DNA from: Candidatus Berkelbacteria bacterium
GTDB taxonomy: Bacteria; Patescibacteriota; UBA1384; XYA2-FULL-43-10; 1-14-0-10-43-13
NCBI GenBank assembly: GCA_037140515.1
Contig: JBAXEI010000004.1
Coordinates: 8,453 to 72,452 of the forward strand
Length of the DNA stretch: 64,000 bases
Reading direction: 5' to 3'
Positions 35,497-61,612 of the stretch are shown piece by piece. The position numbers and the translations under genes are program-made. The notes beneath the pieces are model-generated. The model was not told the DNA's origin, ran no database searches, and saw only the letters and a program-made list of their open reading frames with translations. The stretch's first letter is position 1; each line of letters opens with the position of its first letter.

Positions 35497-35591
35497 TTGG
35501 ATTGGAGCAAAAGGTCGTTGCACCCCCTCCGCACCGACTTCTGCTCCACCGATATACAACATTTTATAAACAATTAGTTAGAAGGAGTATT

Positions 35592-37472
35592 ATGGGAAAA
35601 ATCATTGGGATTGACCTCGGTACAACAAATTCCGCTGTCGCTATCATGGAAGGTGGCGAAGCAAAAATCATCGCCTCATCAGAGGGCGGTAGAACTGTTC
35701 CATCTATTGTCACAGAGACCAAAAAAGGCGATCGCCTTGTCGGTCAGCTTGCCAAGAGACAGGCAGTTACAAACGCTGAAAATACTATTTTTTCAGTCAA
35801 ACGTTTCATCGGCCGAAGCTTCGACGATGCAGACGCTCAGGCAGATTTGAAGAAAATGCCTTATGGCAGCAAAAAAGCTTCTGACGGCTCGATCCGTGTA
35901 GTTATGAATACGAAGGATTATAGCCCACAGGAAATCTCAGCTTTCATCTTGCAAAAGCTAAAAGCTGACGCTGAGACCTATCTTGGCGAGACAGTTACCG
36001 AAGCTGTAATCACTGTTCCTGCTTATTTCAACGATGCACAGCGTCAAGCAACAAAAGATGCTGGTAAAATCGCTGGCCTAGAAGTAAAAAGAATCATCAA
36101 CGAGCCAACGGCTGCAGCTCTTGCATATGGCTTGGACAAAAAGAAAAATGAAAAAATCGCTGTTTACGACCTTGGTGGTGGTACATTTGATATCACAATC
36201 TTGGAGCTTGGCGATGGCGTATTTGAAGTAAAAGCAACCAACGGTGATACTCACCTTGGTGGTGACGACTTCGACCAGATCATCATGGACTTCATCATTG
36301 ATGAGTTCAAGAAAGATCAGGGAATCGATCTTCACACTGACAAAGCGGCAATTCAGAGAGTCAAGGAAGCGGCCGAAAAAGCCAAAATCGAGCTCTCAAC
36401 AGCTGTTGAGTCCGAGATCAATCTACCATTTGTCACTGCCGACGCTTCAGGGCCTAAGCATTTGCAAATGACGATTTCTCGCTCCCAGATGGAGAAAATG
36501 ATCGCGGCTCTAGTAGAAAAAACTCTAAAGCCATGCGAAAAAGTACTCAAAGACGCGAAGATGACGATCAAAGACATTGACGAAGTCATCCTAGTCGGTG
36601 GTATGACTCGTATGCCAGTCGTTCGAGAAGCGGTCAAGAAATTCTTCGACAAAGAGCCAAATCACTCTGTAAATCCTGACGAAGCTGTCGCTATCGGCGC
36701 TGCTGTTCAGGGCGGTGTGCTTACTGGTGAGGTCAAAGACCTTCTTCTGCTCGACGTGACTCCACTTTCTCTCGGTATCGAGACTTTGGGCGGCGTTTCG
36801 ACTAAATTGATCGAGAGAAACACAACCGTTCCAACTTCAAAATCACAAATTTTCTCTACAGCAGCTGACAATCAGACTTCTGTTGAGATCCACGTTTTGC
36901 AGGGCGAGCGCGAATTTGCTGCTGACAACAAAACTCTAGGCAGATTTATCCTAGATGGTATGCCACCAGCACCTCGCGGCGTTCCACAGGTTGAAGTCAC
37001 ATTTGATATCGATGCCAACGGCATTGTAAATGTAAAGGCGACAGACAAAGCTTCTGGCAAAGAGCAACGAATCACGATCACTAGCTCATCTGGGCTTAGT
37101 GAGCAGGAAATCGAGCGAATGCGCAAGGAAGCCGAAGAGCACGCTGACGACGACAAGAAGAAAAAAGAAATCATCGAAGCTAGAAATATGGCTGACAGCC
37201 TCATTTACACTGCTGAGAAATCAATCAAGGATGCTGGCGACAAAGTCGACACAAACTTGAAATCAGATGTAGAAGAAAAAATCAAAACGCTTAAGGATGT
37301 GAAGGACACTGACAACGCTGAGGAGATCAAGACTCAGACGGAAGCTCTAAGCACTTCCCTGCAGGAACTTGGCAAGAAGATGTACGAACAAGCTGCCAAA
37401 GAACAGCCAAAAGAGGAAGCTAAGGAAGACGAAAAAAAAGATACAGAAGAGCCAAAAGAAGAGACTAAATAA
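35592..37472 (+). CDS. dnaK: Molecular chaperone DnaK (Hsp70)
   Basis: The N-terminus reads [22 protein letters not shown] and is preceded by a GAAGGAG ribosome-binding site. The ORF track opens 30 codons upstream (35502). Hsp70 signatures DLGGGTFD and [11 protein letters not shown] are present. Confidence 0.95.
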
Positions 37473-48053: not shown

Positions 48054-49889
48054 TTATTTCTTCTCTTTGGCTTCTTCCTTTGATTCTGTCTTTGTTTTGG
48101 CAAAATAATGCTCAAATTCAGTTGCATTTAATGTTTCCTGCTTGAGCAAATCTTCAGCAATTTGATCGATAACTTTTTTGTGAGTTTTGATAATTTCGTC
48201 AGCTGTTTTCTTACCACTTTTGATAAGAGCCGCAACCTCTTCGTCTATCAATCTAGCGACGTCTTCACTATAGTTTCTCTGTTCGTTGTAGCTTTTACCC
48301 AAGAAAGGCATTTCTTCTCTATGACCATAAATCTGAGCGCCAAGCTTCGTACTCATGCCATAATCAGTAACCATACGACGAGCGATTTCTGTTGCTCTTT
48401 TCAAGTCGTTAGAAGCGCCAGTTGTGACATTGTCATACCCGAAGAATTCTTCTTCAGCAACTCGTCCACCCATCAGCGTTGCAATCTCATCCAAGAAATG
48501 TGCCTTGGACTCAAGCCTTCTCTCCTCAGTTGGCATATTCCATGTATAGCCAAGCGCCATACGTCGAGAAATGATCGATATTTTGTGAACTGGGTCTGCG
48601 TTTGGCAAGATATGGCTGACGACAGCGTGACCAGCCTCATGAATAGCGGTAATTTTTCGTTCCTTCTCGGACATTGCTCGAGATTTTTTCTCTGGCCCCA
48701 TCATAACCTTTTCGATAGAGTCAGTCATGTTTTCCTGTGAAACAGTCTTCTGACTATTTCGAGCAGCGGAAATTGCAGCTTCGTTTGTAAGATTACGAAG
48801 ATCGGCACCAGAGAATCCTGGAGTCGAGGCAGCAATCTTTTCTAGATCAACACCGTTTTCTATAGGCTTACTCTTTGTGTGAACTTTCAAGATTGCAAGA
48901 CGTTCTTTTCGATCAGGAAGATCGATGTAAACTTGACGATCAAAACGACCCGGACGAAGTAGAGCAGGGTCGAGGACGTCTGGTCTATTTGTTGCCGCTA
49001 CAACAATGACATTGTCCGAAGTTTCAAAACCGTCCATCTCAACCAAAATTTGATTTAGAGTTTGCTCGCGTTCATCATGAGAACCGCCAAGACCAGAGCC
49101 ACGTTGTCGTCCGATTGCGTCAAGCTCATCTACAAAGATAATTGCAGGCGAATTGCGCTTTGCTTTTTGGAAAAGATCTCGAACTCGAGATGCACCAACA
49201 CCGACAAACATTTCGACAAATTCTGAAGCTGAGATTGAGAAAAAAGGTACACCAGCTTCGCCAGCGACTGCCTTAGCCATCAGAGTTTTACCGGTTCCGG
49301 GTGAGCCTACAAGCAAAACGCCTTTTGGAATCTCAGCACCAAGTTCCTGATATTTTTTTGGATTTTTCAAGAAATCGACAACTTCAAAGAGCTCCTGCTT
49401 GGCCTCTTCGGCGCCGGCAACATCGTTAAAAGTAACTTTTTTGTCCCCAGTGAAAAGCTTTGCTGTGGATTTACCGAAGCTCATTGCCTTCGAGTTTGCC
49501 CCTTGTGCAGATCTCATCATGAAGAAAATAAATGCGCCAATGAGGAGTATTGGCAAAACAATGGATAGAATCGCAACCCAAGAAGCTGATCCGGAAGTGT
49601 CTTTGACGTCAATCTCAACTTTGTCGGGTGTAATACCGTAGTCCTTCAAGCCGATACCGGCTTCCTTGCTAGCCTGCTCAATTTTACCATCCTTGAGGGT
49701 GGCCTTGACTTGATTATCCTTGATCTCAATCTTTTTGACACTACCCTTCTCGACATCGGACGAGATCTGAGAAATGTTCGTCATCTCGATCTTCTGAGTA
49801 GATTTGTTAAAATAGCTTGATACAAGAAAAAGTCCAAGAACGATCAAAATAATGTAAATCGCTGTTTTGCTTTGGTTTGGTTTCATCAT
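48054..49889 (-). CDS. ftsH: ATP-dependent zinc metalloprotease FtsH
   Basis: The Walker A motif is GSPGTGKT, the second region of homology is present, and the zinc site reads HEAGHA. An N-terminal TM helix and periplasmic domain are present. Confidence 0.95.
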
Positions 49890-52285: not shown

Positions 52286-55051
52286 TTACCATCTTTTTGT
52301 TTTCTTATGGTTTTTCTTGCTCGCCATCTGAACAGGCTTTGCAACTTGTACCTTCTTCTCTGGCTGAACAACCTGCTTTACAGTTTCCTTTTGTTTCTCA
52401 ACTATTTTTGCTGGTTCTACTGTCTTTCCCTTCGCCTTATCCTTTACCGTTACTGCAACTTCTGGCTTGTCCGAGAACCAGTAGAAATATCCACCGGTCG
52501 CAGCGCCTGCCAATAGTATTAGGACGAAAAGAATAATCCAAGGCGTCCAATTATTTGCATCGTCAGTGTTTGACTCCTCACCTTTAACAATACCAGCGTC
52601 GTCATCTTTCGGTGTTTCAACTTTTTTCTCCTCTGGAGCAGCGGCTTTTGCCTTGGCCGGAGCAACTGATGTGGTTGGTGCTGGAGCACTAACAGCTGGA
52701 GTCGTGATAACTTCAGGCTGTGGTACGACTACTGTAGCTGGCACGCTTACTGTCGTAGCAATATTATTAATAGACTGAACATTATTTTTCACTGCGATTA
52801 CCGACACAACATATTTTATTCCTTCAAGAACTTTTAGACTTGAATTATATGAAAGATTTGTGTCATTTGCGTTCCCCGTAATCGTGGAGATAAGTACGTC
52901 ATTTACCTTTATCAAGTATGAATCCGCGCCCGTCCCCTTCCAATTAATATCGAGATACTTAGCGCTATCTTTGCTTACAACCGTAGCTGTAAATACTGGA
53001 ACGGTAACCAAAGTCTGAGTGTAAGTCACAAACTTGGTGAAATGTTTTGTCCAGATTACAAGGTCAGCACCTGCATCAATCTTACAGTCACCTTCGGCTA
53101 ATAGTGCATCGCCAGCAGCCTGAGTATCAGCAGCACAAACTGCATTGATTGGTGTGAAAACATCTGATCTGGTATAGCCGACTGATCTACCGGCGCCACC
53201 AGGAATCAAAATTCTAACTGCCTTATCAAATATTAGCTTAACATCTGGCATACCGATTTCGATCGAAGCGACATTTGTTGGATAATTCCCAGAATTTACT
53301 GTTACTGAAGTTGGATTTACCGTAACCTCTGGAAGTTTCACAACGCCATCCCAAGTCGCAGGGCCAGTAACCGTTGTTCCGCTTGCAACATTGACTACAA
53401 TAGTGTTACCAGATGAAATTTCTGCACTGATTTTTGTTGCACCTTCCATCTTCGCAGATTTGTTTGCAACGCCCGCTGCGTCCTTGCCATCCTGAAGAGA
53501 AGGGGCCAAATTTAGCGTCGTGCCACCAGTTGTAACCTTAATATCCATATTTTCCGCATAACCTTTTGGCACTACGATTTCAGTTGGTGTAGTCACTGTC
53601 ATTCCCGAAGTCGCAACAGCCTGTGTAGGTTTCGCAGCAAGGACTTTTACAGTTCGTACAACGGTAACAGCTTTATTTGAAGCAAGGTCGATCGCATCGT
53701 AAGAGATTGTATAATCCCCTTCTTTCGTTGTGTCGACTGTTCCCGAAGCAACAACTTGGACAGTTGCGTCAAGATTATCTGTGACTGTAGCGCCCGCGTC
53801 AGTATATGTCGAGCCAAAATTAACAGTTTGGATAGCATCTCCTGCCAATATAATCACAGGAGAAGTTTTATCGTATACGATTGTTGTCGAGACTGAGTCA
53901 GCATTTGAATTTCCAGCATCATCAGATATGGTTCCTGATGTTAATTCAACAACTACGCTTCCTTCAGCAGTAGGAACCACATCAAATGTGAAATCTTTAT
54001 GATCTGCAGTTCCAAGATTCGAAGCTGTACCATTTGTAATCTTTAGCTTTGAAATATCCAAGCCAGCAACTGCCTCGCTGCACTTTAGTGTGAGTTTCAG
54101 CGGATTCTCACTTGTTGCAACTGGATAGCTGCTAGAAAGTGTTGCTGTCGGGGCAATTTTATCAACTGTAAATATCTGAGATGCAGCTTTGACAATACGA
54201 TTGCCTGCCATATCCATGATGCTATAGCCCCAGGCGTCAACAAGATAGTCACCACTTAGTAAATCCGAATTATAAACTATAGTTAGGACGTTACCGTTCA
54301 ATACTGCAGTATTGATTTGATTGACCTTAACATTCGTATAATCACCGGTACTCTTATCATAATCATAGATTCCAAGCAAAGAAGATGTTAACGCTGTGAC
54401 TGCACCGTTATTTTGATCAATCAGCTGAACTGGCTCACTAAATGTATAAGTAATGGTTTTAGTGGTCTCGTCCAAGGTAGCCGTTGCAGTTGGAGATTCT
54501 ATGTCAGAGAGAACTGCGCCTTCAATTTTAATGTCATCTATTCCAACTCCATCGCCAGACACTGCATTTTTTGTCTCAAACTTGATCAAAACTTTTTGGC
54601 CGTTGTAAAGAGAAAGGTCAATCGGATCTTGAAGAGTCAGAACATTATCTAAAGGAGTAACAGTCTTTATTAGCGACCAAGTCCCACCGTTGTCCGTCGA
54701 TACAGAAATGTCTATAGCGTTCCGTGGTGCCTGAATTGTCCCGTAAGTCCGAGCGCTAAAAACCAATTTTTCACTGTCTGTCGGTAAAAAGTTCATCGGC
54801 GGTGAAATCAACGATGATGTTGCCTTAGTCATGACTATATAGTCGTTGCTAGCAGCAGTTTGTTGAGTACAGTCGGTGCAAACCCAGGTTGTCTCAGCGG
54901 CAATATTGCCAATGTTCGACGCAATACTAGTCGGAACAAATGGCGCCGCCATTGCCGTTTCGGCTGTTAAGTAGCTTGTAACTAGCCATGACGGGACCAC
55001 CAGAACTGCGGTGATCAGGTAGACTAGAAACTTGCGAAAAAATAGTTTCAT
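52286..55051 (-). CDS. Large cell-surface protein with Ig-like/beta-sandwich repeats and C-terminal TM anchor plus Lys/Pro-rich tail
   Basis: The ORF is 921 aa. A signal peptide reads LVYLITAVLVVPSWLV. Long Thr/Val/Ser-rich beta-type repeats are present. The C-terminus reads TPWIILFVLILLAGAATGGYFYWF and is followed by a KPEV/KAKGK-rich tail. Confidence 0.55.
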   Translation of the reverse strand: MKLFFRKFLVYLITAVLVVPSWLVTSYLTAETAMAAPFVPTSIASNIGNIAAETTWVCTDCTQQTAASNDYIVMTKATSSLISPPMNFLPTDSEKLVFSARTYGTIQAPRNAIDISVSTDNGGTWSLIKTVTPLDNVLTLQDPIDLSLYNGQKVLIKFETKNAVSGDGVGIDDIKIEGAVLSDIESPTATATLDETTKTITYTFSEPVQLIDQNNGAVTALTSSLLGIYDYDKSTGDYTNVKVNQINTAVLNGNVLTIVYNSDLLSGDYLVDAWGYSIMDMAGNRIVKAASQIFTVDKIAPTATLSSSYPVATSENPLKLTLKCSEAVAGLDISKLKITNGTASNLGTADHKDFTFDVVPTAEGSVVVELTSGTISDDAGNSNADSVSTTIVYDKTSPVIILAGDAIQTVNFGSTYTDAGATVTDNLDATVQVVASGTVDTTKEGDYTISYDAIDLASNKAVTVVRTVKVLAAKPTQAVATSGMTVTTPTEIVVPKGYAENMDIKVTTGGTTLNLAPSLQDGKDAAGVANKSAKMEGATKISAEISSGNTIVVNVASGTTVTGPATWDGVVKLPEVTVNPTSVTVNSGNYPTNVASIEIGMPDVKLIFDKAVRILIPGGAGRSVGYTRSDVFTPINAVCAADTQAAGDALLAEGDCKIDAGADLVIWTKHFTKFVTYTQTLVTVPVFTATVVSKDSAKYLDINWKGTGADSYLIKVNDVLISTITGNANDTNLSYNSSLKVLEGIKYVVSVIAVKNNVQSINNIATTVSVPATVVVPQPEVITTPAVSAPAPTTSVAPAKAKAAAPEEKKVETPKDDDAGIVKGEESNTDDANNWTPWIILFVLILLAGAATGGYFYWFSDKPEVAVTVKDKAKGKTVEPAKIVEKQKETVKQVVQPEKKVQVAKPVQMASKKNHKKTKRW

Positions 55052-56298: not shown

Positions 56299-56374
56299 GG
56301 GCTCGTAGCTCAGTGGTTAGAGCAGGCGGCTCATAACCGCTTGGTCGCAGGTTCGAACCCTGCCGGGCCCACCA
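56299..56374 (+). tRNA. tRNA-Ile2 (CAT, lysidine-modified; TilS substrate)
   Basis: The sequence is GGGCTCGTAGCTCAGTGGTTAGAGCAGGCGGCTCATAACCGCTTGGTCGCAGGTTCGAACCCTGCCGGGCCCACCA. It closely parallels known tRNA-Ile2, including the GGCGG anticodon stem and the TTGGTCGC variable loop. Confidence 0.7.
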
Positions 56375-58025: not shown

Positions 58026-60527
58026 TTATTTAATCATTTCAAGCGTAATCTGATATTTGTCGCCTTCCTTCAGCTCGCCTCTTAGAACTTTATCGGCAAG
58101 AAGGTTCTCTAGCTTCTCCTCTATAACCCGCTGCATCGGACGAGCGCCCATTTCTGGGTCAAAGCCTAGCTCGGACAGATAAGCGATGGCGTCCTCGGCT
58201 ACAGTGATCTCAATGCCTTGTGTTTCCTGAATAGTTTTCTTGAGCGTGTCGATCATCAACTTCGCGATTTGTACAATCTCTGCTTGACTGAGCGGAGCAA
58301 AAGCAATAACCGCGCTAAAACGATTTAGTAGCTCAGCACGAAATAAATGCTGATCAACAATATAGCTAGTCAATTTTGCGGACACCTTACTGAAATCGAT
58401 ACCCTCTTTGATCGACTGATAAATAAGCTCGGAACCAGCATTTGAGGTAGCAATGATAATTGTATTAGCGAAGGAAACTTTTTTGCCTTCACCATCGGTC
58501 AGAAGTCCCTCATCAAGAATTTGTAAGAATAAGTTTAGGATATCAGGCTCTGCTTTCTCAATTTCATCAAAAAGTAAAAGCGAAAAAGGATTTTCCCGAA
58601 CTGCAGTCGTGAGATTCCCCTGCTCTGTACGGCTACCTATCAAGCGATATATGTCATCTTTATTTTGATACTCGCTCATGTCATATCTAATCATTTTGGC
58701 TTCCCCTCCAAAATAAACGTTTGCTAGCGCCTTTGCAGTAGCAGTCTTGCCGACACCTGTTGGGCCAAGAAAAAGAAATGAGCCGATAGGTTTGTGTGTA
58801 TCAGTGACCTTCGCTCGAGCACGACGGAGAGCATTCGCGATAGAATCAACAGCCATTGCTTGTCCGATTACAAGTGCGTGCATTTTTTGTTCAAGATTTA
58901 GTAGAATCTCCTGTTCCTTTGCTGCGACATCGCCAGTAGGTAAATCATACTTCTCAGCAATATAGCTTTCGATGTCTGCTGGGAGGATAATTGTTTCGCC
59001 TCTAGCCGCCACTGCTCTCGTCACCGCACCGTCAATAAGGCCTATAGATTTCTCAGGATTTGGCTGATTCAAGATATATTTGCTAGCCGCTTTGATCGCA
59101 GCTTTAATCGCTTCATATGAAACGATAGCTTTTGTTTGATATTCAATAGTAGGTATAGTGTCTTCAAGAACAGAAACCATTGCCTTGTCATCTGGCTCTC
59201 GCACGGTAACTTTCACAAAACGTTTTGCTAGAGCTCCATTTGGCAATATTGTGTTATTGTAGCCAGCAACGTCGCAAGAGCCAACAATGTGAATTTCATT
59301 GCTATCTAGATATGGCAAAATTACTTCTGACAAATTCGCTTTGCCGACAGTGTCACCGGAGAAAAGATTATCAATGTTTTCAATATATAGAATGACATTT
59401 CCAGCGCTGGCAGTCTCACTAAAAACTCTGCCGACCTTCTCCATCAGGGCACCCGGATCGGCTTCACCAGAAAGTAACGATTCTATATCGAGCTGAAATA
59501 TATGTCGTTTATTAAGAGTCGGATTGAGGTTTCCATTAACCAAATTCTTGACAAAGCCTAAGATTATTGTGCGCTTGCCAATCCCCGCATCGCCAACCAT
59601 GATCACGTTGCCGTTTGCCTGGCTCAAAAGTGCTTCTTCGATCTCACGAATCTCCTTTTCTCTAGCAATCACTTCAAGACTTAGACCGTATTCGCGAATC
59701 GATTCTGTAAGATCCATAGAATACATTCTAAGAAAGTTAGTATAACCAAAAACCCAATCTCGGCCTATGCCACCTGTCATTTTGAAACGACGATAATTGA
59801 ACACTCCCTCATTTTCGTCGACCTTATCATCTAGGGTCGCCTGCCAATGAACAATATTTGCGATGTCATCTGCGTTTAACCTTAAGTTTTTTAAGATTCC
59901 TTGGAAAAAAGCGTCGGAATCACAGAAAGCCCAAAAAACGTCCACGGCGGATATTTCTTTTCGATTTGCAATGATGGCCAAATCCAGAGCGTGCGCTATG
60001 AGATTGGTAGTTGATGTCGAAGAAGGATAGTTGCTGGTAATAATATTTATAATGTCTTCTTTACCCAAGCCAAGACGCAAAAGGATGAAGTTTATTTCAC
60101 GCGTATCCATGACCGCAAGTGCAAGGTTCTGCATTGTTTCAGAAACAGCATCTTTGCTGCCATACATTTTTTCCGTTGAGGCAGCAAAATCATAAGAAAA
60201 AAGAGCGTAGAGATTGACGATTTTACCCTCTGCAATGCGCTTTTTTGCCTCGGACAAAGATATCCTAGGCCTTCTGACTTTAGCAATAAAAAATTTTCTA
60301 AAAGCTAGATATACCAAGAAAACTGCAAGCAAAAGCAGGCAAAGACCGATAATTCTAAGATCAAAATGGTATAGAAACGAGCTTCCCAATACCAAGATCG
60401 AGCAAACACCCAACAACCAAACTGCAAAGAAAATAATGCGGAAGATAAAATTGGAGAAATATTTCGTCAAAACAACAGCTTTGTGAATAGTTGTCCCCGC
60501 AGGCCTAATGGTGATTTCAGTTTGCAT
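58026..60527 (-). CDS. Membrane-anchored Hsp100/Clp-family AAA+ ATPase (ClpC/ClpB-like) with degenerate first nucleotide-binding domain
   Basis: Two N-terminal TM helices are present. A Clp-N-like repeat region follows. D1 has Walker A GDAGIGKRT and Walker B YIENID, both degenerate. D2 is intact (GPTGVGKT, LLLFDEIEKA, ARPM). Confidence 0.8.
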   Translation of the reverse strand: MQTEITIRPAGTTIHKAVVLTKYFSNFIFRIIFFAVWLLGVCSILVLGSSFLYHFDLRIIGLCLLLLAVFLVYLAFRKFFIAKVRRPRISLSEAKKRIAEGKIVNLYALFSYDFAASTEKMYGSKDAVSETMQNLALAVMDTREINFILLRLGLGKEDIINIITSNYPSSTSTTNLIAHALDLAIIANRKEISAVDVFWAFCDSDAFFQGILKNLRLNADDIANIVHWQATLDDKVDENEGVFNYRRFKMTGGIGRDWVFGYTNFLRMYSMDLTESIREYGLSLEVIAREKEIREIEEALLSQANGNVIMVGDAGIGKRTIILGFVKNLVNGNLNPTLNKRHIFQLDIESLLSGEADPGALMEKVGRVFSETASAGNVILYIENIDNLFSGDTVGKANLSEVILPYLDSNEIHIVGSCDVAGYNNTILPNGALAKRFVKVTVREPDDKAMVSVLEDTIPTIEYQTKAIVSYEAIKAAIKAASKYILNQPNPEKSIGLIDGAVTRAVAARGETIILPADIESYIAEKYDLPTGDVAAKEQEILLNLEQKMHALVIGQAMAVDSIANALRRARAKVTDTHKPIGSFLFLGPTGVGKTATAKALANVYFGGEAKMIRYDMSEYQNKDDIYRLIGSRTEQGNLTTAVRENPFSLLLFDEIEKAEPDILNLFLQILDEGLLTDGEGKKVSFANTIIIATSNAGSELIYQSIKEGIDFSKVSAKLTSYIVDQHLFRAELLNRFSAVIAFAPLSQAEIVQIAKLMIDTLKKTIQETQGIEITVAEDAIAYLSELGFDPEMGARPMQRVIEEKLENLLADKVLRGELKEGDKYQITLEMIK

Positions 60528-60928
60528 TAGAAGAGTCCTAAACTATATTTAAGTCCGAAGTAAATCAAGGCAACAATTATTAGCGGAAAAAATATCCAAA
60601 ATATTATGTATGCAGACATAAGAACAAAGAATATTGCTATCATGATCAGATAGGTCAGAAGTGTGCCAAGCTTGACACAAAAGCCAACAATAACAGACGC
60701 CAAATTCAGAACCATCGACTCAAACATCGCTTTGATATTGAAGCCAGGTCCATCGTAAGTGACCGTGTCCCGTCGCCAAACAGAAAACAAGGTAGTCAGA
60801 CAAATCTTCACAGAAAAAAAATCATAAAGATATGCAAGCAGATGTTTAAAATAGCTAAAAGTGGCAGTAAGCATTTCGCCATACCACCAACTTATAAACA
60901 TTAGGCTTAAGTCTTTCCCCTCAGTCAT
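60527..60928 (-). CDS. Hypothetical small polytopic membrane protein, coupled to the Clp-like gene
   Basis: The ORF is 133 aa with 3 TM helices. Its stop codon overlaps the start of the Clp-like ATPase gene at 60527. Confidence 0.35.
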   Translation of the reverse strand: MTEGKDLSLMFISWWYGEMLTATFSYFKHLLAYLYDFFSVKICLTTLFSVWRRDTVTYDGPGFNIKAMFESMVLNLASVIVGFCVKLGTLLTYLIMIAIFFVLMSAYIIFWIFFPLIIVALIYFGLKYSLGLF

Positions 60929-60943
60929 AACTTTTTTGCGATA

Positions 60944-61201
60944 TTATTCTTCTTCTGGTTTGTCGTCTTTGTTTGAATCTAGAACAGAAATTGCAGCAAC
61001 CGGGCAGCTTGCAACGGCTTCGTCTATTAGGTCAGCATCTTCTTCCTTGTATGGTGCGATTGCATTGGCAAGGCCGTCTTCAAGCTGAAAATAATCAGGT
61101 GCAACACCCTCACAAGTTCCGCAACCAATGCAAACATTGTGATCAACTACAATTTTCTTAGTGCTTTTCTCTTCATCTTTTTCGCCCATAATACTCCTCA
61201 A
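60944..61201 (-). CDS. 4Fe-4S single-cluster ferredoxin
   Basis: The cluster motif reads CIGCGTCEGVAP, with a distal Cys in SCPVAAI. The protein is 85 aa and acidic. Confidence 0.8.
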   Translation of the reverse strand: MRSIMGEKDEEKSTKKIVVDHNVCIGCGTCEGVAPDYFQLEDGLANAIAPYKEEDADLIDEAVASCPVAAISVLDSNKDDKPEEE

Positions 61202-61254
61202 ATAATTATTTGTTTACGTTCACATTATAATAGAAAGATTGGCCGCTTGCAATC

Positions 61255-61291
61255 AAAAAAATACCTCCGCATTGCTACGAAGGTATTTTTT
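61255..61291 (-). terminator. Hairpin terminator downstream of the RRM gene
   Basis: The stem ATACCT...AGGTAT is flanked by AAAAAAA and TTTTTT. Confidence 0.45.
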
Positions 61292-61306
61292 ATAGTTTCG
61301 AGAATA

Positions 61307-61612
61307 TTATTCTGCGTCTCTATCTTTTTTTGGTCTTGCAAAGTCAACTTTGATTGCGCGGCCAGCAATTTCTTTGCCGTCCATGCCTTCTTTTGCTGCT
61401 GTTGCTTCTTCGACGGTCGCAAATTCGACGAAAGCGAAGCCCTTTGATCGGCCGGTGTCTGGGTATTTAACAACTGATGCAGAAACGACCTCACCAAATG
61501 CTCCGAAAGCAGTTTGAAGGTCCTCATCAGTAGCAGCCCAAGCTAATCCGCCAATAAAAAGTTTTTGATTTGGCTCTGCAGGGGTTTCATCCCTGTCTGT
61601 AACATTGTCCAT
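61307..61612 (-). CDS. RRM-type RNA-binding protein
   Basis: RNP-2 reads KLFIGGL and RNP-1 reads KGFAFVEF. The protein is 101 aa. Confidence 0.8.
   Translation of the reverse strand: MDNVTDRDETPAEPNQKLFIGGLAWAATDEDLQTAFGAFGEVVSASVVKYPDTGRSKGFAFVEFATVEEATAAKEGMDGKEIAGRAIKVDFARPKKDRDAE

Follow-up and report, generated by a model that had tools for sequence, protein, structure and literature searches.

We analysed a window of 64,000 nucleotides (nt) from Candidatus Berkelbacteria bacterium (NCBI GenBank assembly GCA_037140515.1, contig JBAXEI010000004.1), the window being the whole stretch of DNA to which the positions below refer. Two overlapping genes in it encode a membrane-anchored ATPase of the Hsp100/Clp type and a small membrane protein, hereafter the partner. 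With moderate confidence we propose that the two proteins are subunits of a Patescibacteria-specific membrane AAA+ machine, which would be powered by the second AAA+ module (D2) of the ATPase, would probably work without threading its substrate, and would act on or through the partner. The two genes are:

58026..60527, minus strand: ATPase gene, 833 amino acids (aa), supported by the open reading frame (ORF) listing, Pfam and NCBIfam matches, an AlphaFold2 (AF2) model and Foldseek matches to ClpC, ClpB and ClpA.
60527..60928, minus strand: partner gene, 133 aa, polytopic membrane protein of an orphan family, supported by the ORF listing and an AF2 model with a predicted local distance difference test (pLDDT) score of 92.

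As stated in a preliminary description of this DNA made from the sequence alone, the upstream 133-aa gene ends where the ATPase gene starts. The partner TAA and the ATPase ATG overlap as TAATG with base 60527 common to both (junction DNA: ctTCTAATGcaa), and AGGA is found 8 nt 5' of the ATPase ATG; the NCBI annotation of the partner starts at Met10 (60901) and gives 124 aa. The preliminary description had read this arrangement as coupled translation and had raised the question of whether the partner co-occurs across relatives, and the comparison of genomes revealed a functional link stronger than coupling. Six diverse loci were fetched via the ATPase, whose identity to the window protein ranged over 35-49%, and each of them carried a homologous gene of 126-146 aa directly upstream. 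Five of these gene pairs overlapped by 4 nt or were 1-7 nt apart, the sixth was separated by 129 nt, and the neighbours beyond the pair varied. The reverse search, in which the partner profile was scanned against GTDB genomes, one for each species, and which covers part of the family, yielded 80 loci. Using tblastn, a Clp gene of the family was found directly downstream and on the same strand in 75 of these 80 species-level loci, and the remaining five, on short contigs, are truncated by a contig end or located no more than ~1.1 kb from one. The 75 pairs comprised 6 in-frame fusions (~8% of species), 19 overlaps (1-23 nt), 20 gaps of 0-10 nt, 24 gaps of 11-200 nt and 6 larger gaps. Further independent fusions were detected among the ATPase homologs (P0078, P0081, P0275, P0358), with the partner domain located N-terminally and replacing part or all of the ATPase anchor. 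Strict adjacency together with recurrent fusion provides strong evidence that partner and ATPase work as one complex. The window locus displays all features of the module, i.e. a Clp protein anchored by transmembrane (TM) helices, a degenerate first AAA+ module (D1), a D2 without its pore loop, and an adjacent partner gene. These features, with the partner either adjacent or fused, recur in 75 of the 80 species loci.

The ATPase is a class-I Hsp100/Clp derivative with two tandem AAA+ modules and a D2-small domain. Pfam matches were obtained for AAA_2 (5e-44), ClpB_D2-small (PF10431; 1.3e-23) and AAA_lid_9, while D1 gave only weak generic P-loop matches and Clp_N did not match the window protein. 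In the comparison with Clp-class models, the ATPase scored below every Clp equivalog in NCBIfam: 430.6 bits against a cut-off of 1232.1 for ClpB/Hsp104 (TIGR03346), 427.8 bits against 993.15 for ClpA (TIGR02639), and far under the cut-offs for ClpV, ClpG and ClpK. An AF2 model of the single chain, built from 59 family sequences (pLDDT 84; predicted template modelling score 0.73), was used for structural comparison, and Foldseek superposed D1-D2 on protomers of ClpC, ClpB and ClpA at ~3.2 Å over ~570 residues, with a template modelling score of 0.88 to ClpC. The protein is composed, in this order, of a cytosolic N-peptide, a TM hairpin, a divergent Clp_N-type domain, D1, D2 and D2-small:

60450..60527, minus strand: residues 1-26, conserved cytosolic N-terminal peptide, consensus I..xGTxIxxAVxL (family consensus).
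60276..60449, minus strand: residues 27-84, TM helical hairpin followed by a basic stretch (family hydropathy; AF2 helices).
59811..60257, minus strand: residues 91-239, all-helical N domain, divergent Clp_N double repeat (hidden Markov model, HMM; AF2 helices).
59739..59774, minus strand: residues 252-263, GGIGRDW..GYT motif in the linker between N domain and D1 (invariant or near-invariant columns; linker conservation 0.64).
58938..59717, minus strand: residues 271-530, D1 AAA+ module, predicted pseudo-ATPase (alignment; family-wide motifs).
58293..58895, minus strand: residues 545-745, D2 AAA+ module, predicted active motor (ClpB alignment; family motifs).
58050..58292, minus strand: residues 746-826, ClpB_D2-small C-terminal domain (Pfam PF10431).

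The two N-terminal TM helices given in the preliminary description were recovered in the AF2 model at residues 27-50 and 57-84, separated by a 6-residue loop (pLDDT 85-92) and followed by RKFFIAKVRRPR. Hydropathy predicted N-terminal hydrophobic segments that fit a TM anchor in essentially all full-length family members. A cleaved signal peptide was considered and ruled out, given the two helices starting only at residue 27, the basic stretch past the second helix (TM2) and the family-wide occurrence of the hydrophobic segments; because 26 conserved cytosolic residues precede the helices and RKFFIAKVRRPR comes after them, we read the region as a hairpin anchor. For the domain past the hairpin, an HMM made from canonical Clp N domains recognised 136 of 149 family members at E<1e-3 (best 4e-15) and the window ATPase itself only at E 2.4e-3. 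Because the model recognises so many members, we assign this domain as a divergent but homologous Clp_N. The GGIGRDW..GYT motif of the following linker is family-specific, its W258 is invariant, and it is a candidate for contact with the partner or with a substrate.

We compared the motifs of both AAA+ modules by aligning the window ATPase residue by residue to E. coli ClpB, and surveyed them family-wide in 81 homologs and 70 species-representative genomes. The features of D2 are:

58743-58766, minus strand: D2 Walker A, GPTGVGKT (ClpB alignment).
58563-58577, minus strand: D2 Walker B, LLFDE (ClpB alignment).
58614..58637, minus strand: residues 631-638, GSRTEQGN, remnant of the D2 pore-1 loop (ClpB alignment; family-wide pattern).

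Sensor 1 (N696), the Arg finger (R736) and sensor 2 (GAR) of D2 are likewise intact, and over ~70 species the Walker B Glu, sensor 1 Asn, Arg finger and sensor 2 Arg were invariant. Columns conserved to at least 90% made up 81 of 201 in the large domain of D2, compared to 16 of 174 in D1. This makes D2 by far the most conserved part of the ATPase, and from its conservation we take it to be the motor. The preliminary description had called D2 fully canonical, which holds for the ATPase site and not for the pore. It had also listed a replacement of PPGYVGY by SRTEQGN; this substitution is real, and the segment, the nature of which had been missed, is the D2 pore-1 loop, in which a clean 6-residue deletion takes out the GYVG tyrosine (GAPPGYVGYEEGG in ClpB, GSR------TEQGN in the window protein). 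The tip of this loop is deleted in almost all family members. In essentially all members, neither tier carries Tyr at the aligned position of its pore loop, and an aromatic residue anywhere within the loop segment was found in 14 of 71 members for D1 and in 7 of 71 for D2. With no pore-loop tyrosine left in either tier and the tip of the D2 loop gone, threading-type unfolding appears unlikely.

The first tier deviates at its catalytic motifs as well as in its pore:

59568-59594, minus strand: D1 Walker A, GDAGIGKRT (ClpB alignment).
59445-59471, minus strand: D1 pore loop without Tyr (ClpB alignment).
59376-59393, minus strand: D1 Walker B, ILYIEN (ClpB alignment).

Relative to ClpB, GEPGVGKTA is changed to GDAGIGKRT in Walker A (Thr to Arg), ILFIDE to ILYIEN in Walker B (DE to EN), and ERRF to AKRF at the Arg pair; the pore loop AGAKYRGEFEER is changed to SGEADPGALMEK, whereby KYRG becomes ADPG and the Tyr is lost. 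The deviations GDAGIGKRT and YIENID reported earlier were thus confirmed, and they predict a catalytically degenerate D1. With GKR and EN in place of GKT and DE, the protein would not possess two catalytically competent nucleotide-binding domains, and D1 is best described, from its motifs, as a structural pseudo-ATPase tier. Within the closer clade (P0001-P0069), D1 carries GxGK[R/K/H]T as Walker A and hhhhEN as Walker B. In the family at large, the D1 Walker A is almost never GK[ST] and instead reads G[KR]x[ST], and the D1 Arg fingers are often lost; distant members display other degenerate combinations, e.g. GxGRKS with the Arg fingers lost. A canonical D1 Walker A was kept in two members (L035, a fused form, and L082; GKT and GKS), and a canonical Walker B (DE) in P0070 and P0071. 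Since some members keep the canonical Walker A and others the Walker B, D1 degeneration took different routes in different branches, and the variety of degenerate motifs across the family, with few canonical ones, indicates relaxed selection on D1 catalysis with retention of the fold.

The partner is modelled with helices at residues 7-37, 40-45 and 65-129. It matched nothing in Pfam, NCBIfam or PADLOC, the Pfam result being the same when 88 members were scanned at E<=1, and neither a sequence-profile search nor Foldseek returned a significant relative in the PDB. A profile search yielded at least 949 homologs, those listed all being ~125-136 aa, and the named ones are 'hypothetical protein' entries from Patescibacteria; an exhaustive HMM search of 1.84 billion cluster representatives (50% identity) gave at least 1,488 partner clusters at E<=1e-3. 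Invariant positions are W14, F38, T46, W51, G82, W111 and P115, and the protein carries a conserved TLFSPW[RK]RD motif predicted to be cytosolic. Natural fusions conflict on the parity of the partner's membrane passes. In one kind (P0078, P0358), the partner domain is joined straight to the cytosolic Clp_N domain; in the other (P0275, P0285), a further hydrophobic helix corresponding to TM2 of the ATPase comes after it. Because the two kinds imply opposite sidedness of the C terminus, the last 43-residue hydrophobic stretch of the partner, where the invariant residues W111 and P115 lie, may kink or re-enter the membrane.

How such a machine would work can be outlined by combining these features with the behaviour of Clp/Hsp100 relatives. 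The ATPase would form a hexamer as these relatives do, with the N-domain/D1 face of the ring placed against the cytoplasmic face of the membrane and held there by 12 TM helices and a ring of partner subunits. D1 would serve as a structural tier without ATP hydrolysis, and ATP hydrolysis in D2 would drive a conformational change in the partner or in a membrane-embedded assembly instead of threading through the axial pore. By analogy, the working mode may be akin to that of Torsin with its transmembrane cofactors, or of the non-threading membrane AAA protein Bcs1. Non-threading remodelling or gating appears to be the most economical interpretation, because the gripping elements are gone from both tiers and the ATPase site is under the strongest selection.

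Several points weigh against this proposal. Hexamer formation, contact with the partner and stoichiometry are all inferred. Loss of the aromatic pore-loop residues renders threading improbable rather than impossible, and the conserved W/Y-bearing GGIGRDW..GYT loop atop D1 could have assumed the contact with a substrate. The Clp_N domain, which is retained here, is usually a module for binding substrates or adaptors. Unlike Torsin, D2 keeps its own Arg finger, which makes the Torsin analogy partial. Finally, the proximity of many loci to the dcw cluster (see below) may only reflect shared ancestry of Parcubacteria loci; since most of these loci are related Parcubacteria, synteny is not separable from functional linkage.

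The alternative that survives best, which we still consider unlikely, is a membrane-tethered unfoldase or extractase, i.e. a counterpart of FtsH or Msp1 devoid of a protease, that would thread damaged or mislocalised membrane proteins through the ring to extract them from the bilayer, or dissolve aggregates at the membrane in this way, with the partner as adaptor or entry gate. The FtsH-like geometry, with N-terminal TM helices and a ring facing the membrane, would suit such a function, as would the retained Clp_N-type domain for substrates or adaptors, the intact D2 ATPase, and the aromatic residues of the linker motif, which could stand in as a grip. It has to be reconciled with the family-wide absence of the D1 pore-loop Tyr and the deletion of the D2 pore-1 loop tip in almost all members, and with the lack of both a ClpP loop (see below) and an M domain for Hsp70 coupling: compared to the ClpB reference, the alignment shows a gap of ~100 columns and no insertion after D1, an M-domain insertion is likewise missing in comparison with the ClpC reference, and the AF2 model contains no coiled coil. 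A ClpB-type disaggregase was rejected for want of this M domain. Furthermore, the window already encodes both FtsH, as the preliminary description had pointed out, and DnaK:

48054-49889, minus strand: FtsH (RPGRFD motif).
35502-37472: DnaK, within the window.

With the pore-loop tyrosines, the M domain and the ClpP loop all missing, the earlier proposal of an unfoldase for membrane-protein quality control or disaggregation was not upheld.

An ATP-binding scaffold or regulator resembling the plant ClpB-like proteins SMAX1/D53, in which Clp_N would tether or sequester a client at the membrane and the nucleotide state would act as a switch, is improbable. The degenerate D1 and the lost pore loops are in line with it, and a PDB sequence search returned a weak D2 match to SMAX1 (5.6e-8). 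However, invariance of the D2 catalytic residues over ~70 species, in what is the most conserved module, is a signature of selection for hydrolysis and not for binding alone. It is still far less probable that the protein is the ATPase component of a ClpP protease, i.e. a membrane-bound ClpC or ClpA. The database name 'ATP-dependent Clp protease ATP-binding subunit' speaks for it, and its length and missing M domain are ClpA-like. Nonetheless, the search for an IGF/VGF-type loop proposed in the preliminary description found the ClpP-docking tripeptide [IVLM]G[FLM] after D2 sensor 1 in 0 of 69 members, while the ClpC and ClpA references carry LGF/MGF; the region past sensor 1 has ClpB-like length and lacks the 8-residue loop insertion of the ClpC reference, and the ClpA score reaches 428 of the 993 bits at the cut-off. 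A motif search detected no ClpP or ClpX within the 64-kb window. With no docking loop, the ClpP partner was rejected. Nor is the pair a known defence system, as PADLOC gave only generic matches to the D2 domain (DolB, PDC-M37B) and nothing for the partner. That the unusual motifs, the one point in its favour, reflect a sequencing or assembly error or a decaying pseudogene has next to no credibility and was ruled out, since the ORF is intact, the identical 833-aa protein occurs on 3 independent contigs (NCBI, JGI, ENA; deposited as 'AAA family ATPase'), orthologs at 83-88% identity share the deviant motifs, and the deviations are common to hundreds of homologs together with an invariant D2.

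Homology searches returned ~80 full-length ATPase relatives of 820-850 aa with 31-88% identity, and every relative with an organism name belongs to the Patescibacteria. Their database labels are ClpA, ClpC, 'AAA family ATPase' and 'ATP-dependent Clp protease ATP-binding subunit'. Judged by the tests that define these classes, the sequence clearly belongs to the Hsp100 superfamily yet falls outside ClpA, ClpB, ClpC and FtsH, and database titles like 'ATP-dependent Clp protease ATP-binding subunit ClpA/ClpC' probably mislead. In the full-text literature searched on Patescibacteria/candidate phyla radiation, neither a TM-anchored Hsp100 nor the partner family was described. The lineages named among the 80 partner loci are Berkelbacteria, Nealsonbacteria, Paceibacter/Paceibacterota, Moraniibacteriota, Staskawiczbacteria, Portnoybacteria, Gribaldobacteria and Parcubacteria, along with many third-party annotation (TPA) metagenome-assembled genomes (MAGs) labelled 'Saccharibacteria' and one 2.6-kb contig labelled Omnitrophota. 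Many TPA MAG records (L010, L011, L016 and ~30 other loci) are titled 'uncultured Candidatus Saccharibacteria bacterium', and their Clp sequences group with Berkelbacteria or Parcubacteria types; this title may be a generic placeholder for Patescibacteria.

To survey gene neighbourhoods, the flanking ORFs of the 75 paired loci were clustered. Recurrent neighbours were MraZ (33 loci) and RsmH (28 loci), located ~1.3 kb downstream; an FtsL-like gene (13 loci) and a penicillin-binding protein (11 loci) recur too, so that the module borders on the dcw cluster. Upstream of the module, 8 loci carry an MltG-like gene. Directly downstream of the pair lies a DUF4015 glycosidase-like protein or a 410-aa secreted protein, as a single variable gene between pair and dcw cluster. 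These neighbourhoods point weakly to the cell envelope or division. In many Parcubacteria loci (L017-L089; e.g. L049 8001-8603, L084 8881-10014), the pair is directly upstream of the dcw cluster. Two further membrane proteins were observed next to the module. In 20 loci (e.g. L021 2523-2864; L008 5644-5997), the gene immediately preceding the partner gene in the same orientation encodes a protein of ~113 aa with two predicted TM helices and without Pfam match; it may be a third component in Parcubacteria, and the window locus lacks its gene. The other, encoded between the partner and Clp genes of a single Parcubacteria genome (L008 6394-7539) at one of the 6 larger gaps, is a membrane protein of 381 aa with a long coiled coil at its C terminus.

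Upstream of the partner gene, the window contains one further closely spaced gene on the same strand:

60944..61201, minus strand: ferredoxin, 85 aa, single-cluster 4Fe-4S (Pfam Fer4_13 and Fer4_15).

The ferredoxin gene is probably co-transcribed with the partner gene, and because it lies only 15 bp ahead of it, ferredoxin, partner and ATPase may form one transcription unit. The top promoter-like site of the region, TTGCAA-17-TATAAT at 61252-61224, is located just upstream of the ferredoxin gene. The ferredoxin occupies the same position in the related loci L001 and L003, and since it adjoins the module only in a Berkelbacteria-like clade, it is probably not part of the partner-ATPase machine. 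In this clade (window 60944-61612, minus strand; L001, L002, L003), the module is preceded by the ferredoxin, a CsoR-type metal repressor (in the relatives) and an RNA recognition motif (RRM) RNA-binding protein, and in two of its loci a ZIP metal transporter is found close to the module. Downstream of the module and on the opposite strand, the window and its close relatives encode a YkuD L,D-transpeptidase and a CAP-domain protein, between which the window carries a tRNA-Met (CAT) gene (56299-56374, plus strand); a 77-aa ORF opposite this tRNA gene is spurious. At 52286-55051 (minus strand) follows a predicted surface protein of 921 aa with an N-terminal signal or anchor, repeated Ig-like regions, a C-terminal TM helix and a lysine-rich tail, and relatives encode Big_13/Ig-like or NosD/beta-helix proteins at this position. 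LepA is also encoded in the window.

Hsp100/Clp proteins are the textbook case of pore-loop-driven threading, and here a large, well-conserved bacterial clade keeps a perfect D2 ATP site, drops the pore loop, carries a D1 predicted to be inactive, and gains an anchor and an obligate orphan partner. Such a pattern would show that the Hsp100 scaffold has been repurposed for other mechanical work, and it would provide a simple prokaryotic model in which to ask how cofactor-dependent AAA+ proteins without pore loops, Torsin among them, act on membranes. As a tentative and more speculative extension by analogy, the family might represent a bacterial version of the Torsin principle, in which an Hsp100 unfoldase was turned into a non-threading, D2-powered membrane machine with a dedicated small subunit for a lineage-specific envelope task, for example remodelling of the membrane or septum, or gating or energising of a channel in an episymbiotic lifestyle. 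If true, bacterial AAA+ machines would gain a new functional class, and this reduced-genome radiation a defining component. Moreover, an orphan family of at least 1,488 clusters (50% identity) gains a context, and a widespread lineage-specific machine is flagged in the Patescibacteria, the cell biology of which is largely unknown.

With the class-I Clp/Hsp100 proteins ClpB, ClpC and ClpA, the window ATPase shares the tandem AAA+ modules, D2-small, a Clp_N-type N domain and identical key residues at the D2 ATP site. It differs from them by the additional TM hairpin and membrane partner, by the degenerate Walker A and B of D1, and by the absence of both pore-loop tyrosines (KYRG, GYVG); furthermore, the M domain of ClpB and ClpC and the ClpP loop of ClpA and ClpC are both missing from it. 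FtsH is likewise a bacterial AAA+ protein with two N-terminal TM helices and a ring facing the cytoplasmic side of the membrane. However, FtsH combines one classical AAA module, whose pore loop is aromatic, with a fused M41 zinc protease (HEXXH), whereas Pfam detected no peptidase domain in the window ATPase, its pore loop lacks the aromatic residue, and a true FtsH is encoded separately.

Bcs1 and the Plasmodium PTEX complex HSP101-EXP2 are cases in which an AAA+ or Hsp100 ring is coupled to a membrane-embedded assembly and works at the membrane. HSP101 has kept its pore-loop tyrosines and threads substrates, and Bcs1 is a single-tier, non-threading heptamer. The window partner has no sequence relationship to EXP2 or Bcs1. 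Torsins, which are related to Clp/Hsp100, are membrane-associated AAA+ proteins without aromatic pore loops, and transmembrane cofactors control them (PMC5425593). The likeness of the window module to Torsin with LAP1/LULL1, which belong to the eukaryotic endoplasmic reticulum and nuclear envelope, would be functional only. Torsin is a luminal, eukaryotic protein with a single AAA+ module and without an Arg finger of its own, which the cofactor supplies, whereas the window ATPase is two-tiered and predicted to be cytoplasmic, carries its own invariant D2 Arg finger (R736), and is paired with a small polytopic partner that has no AAA-like fold.

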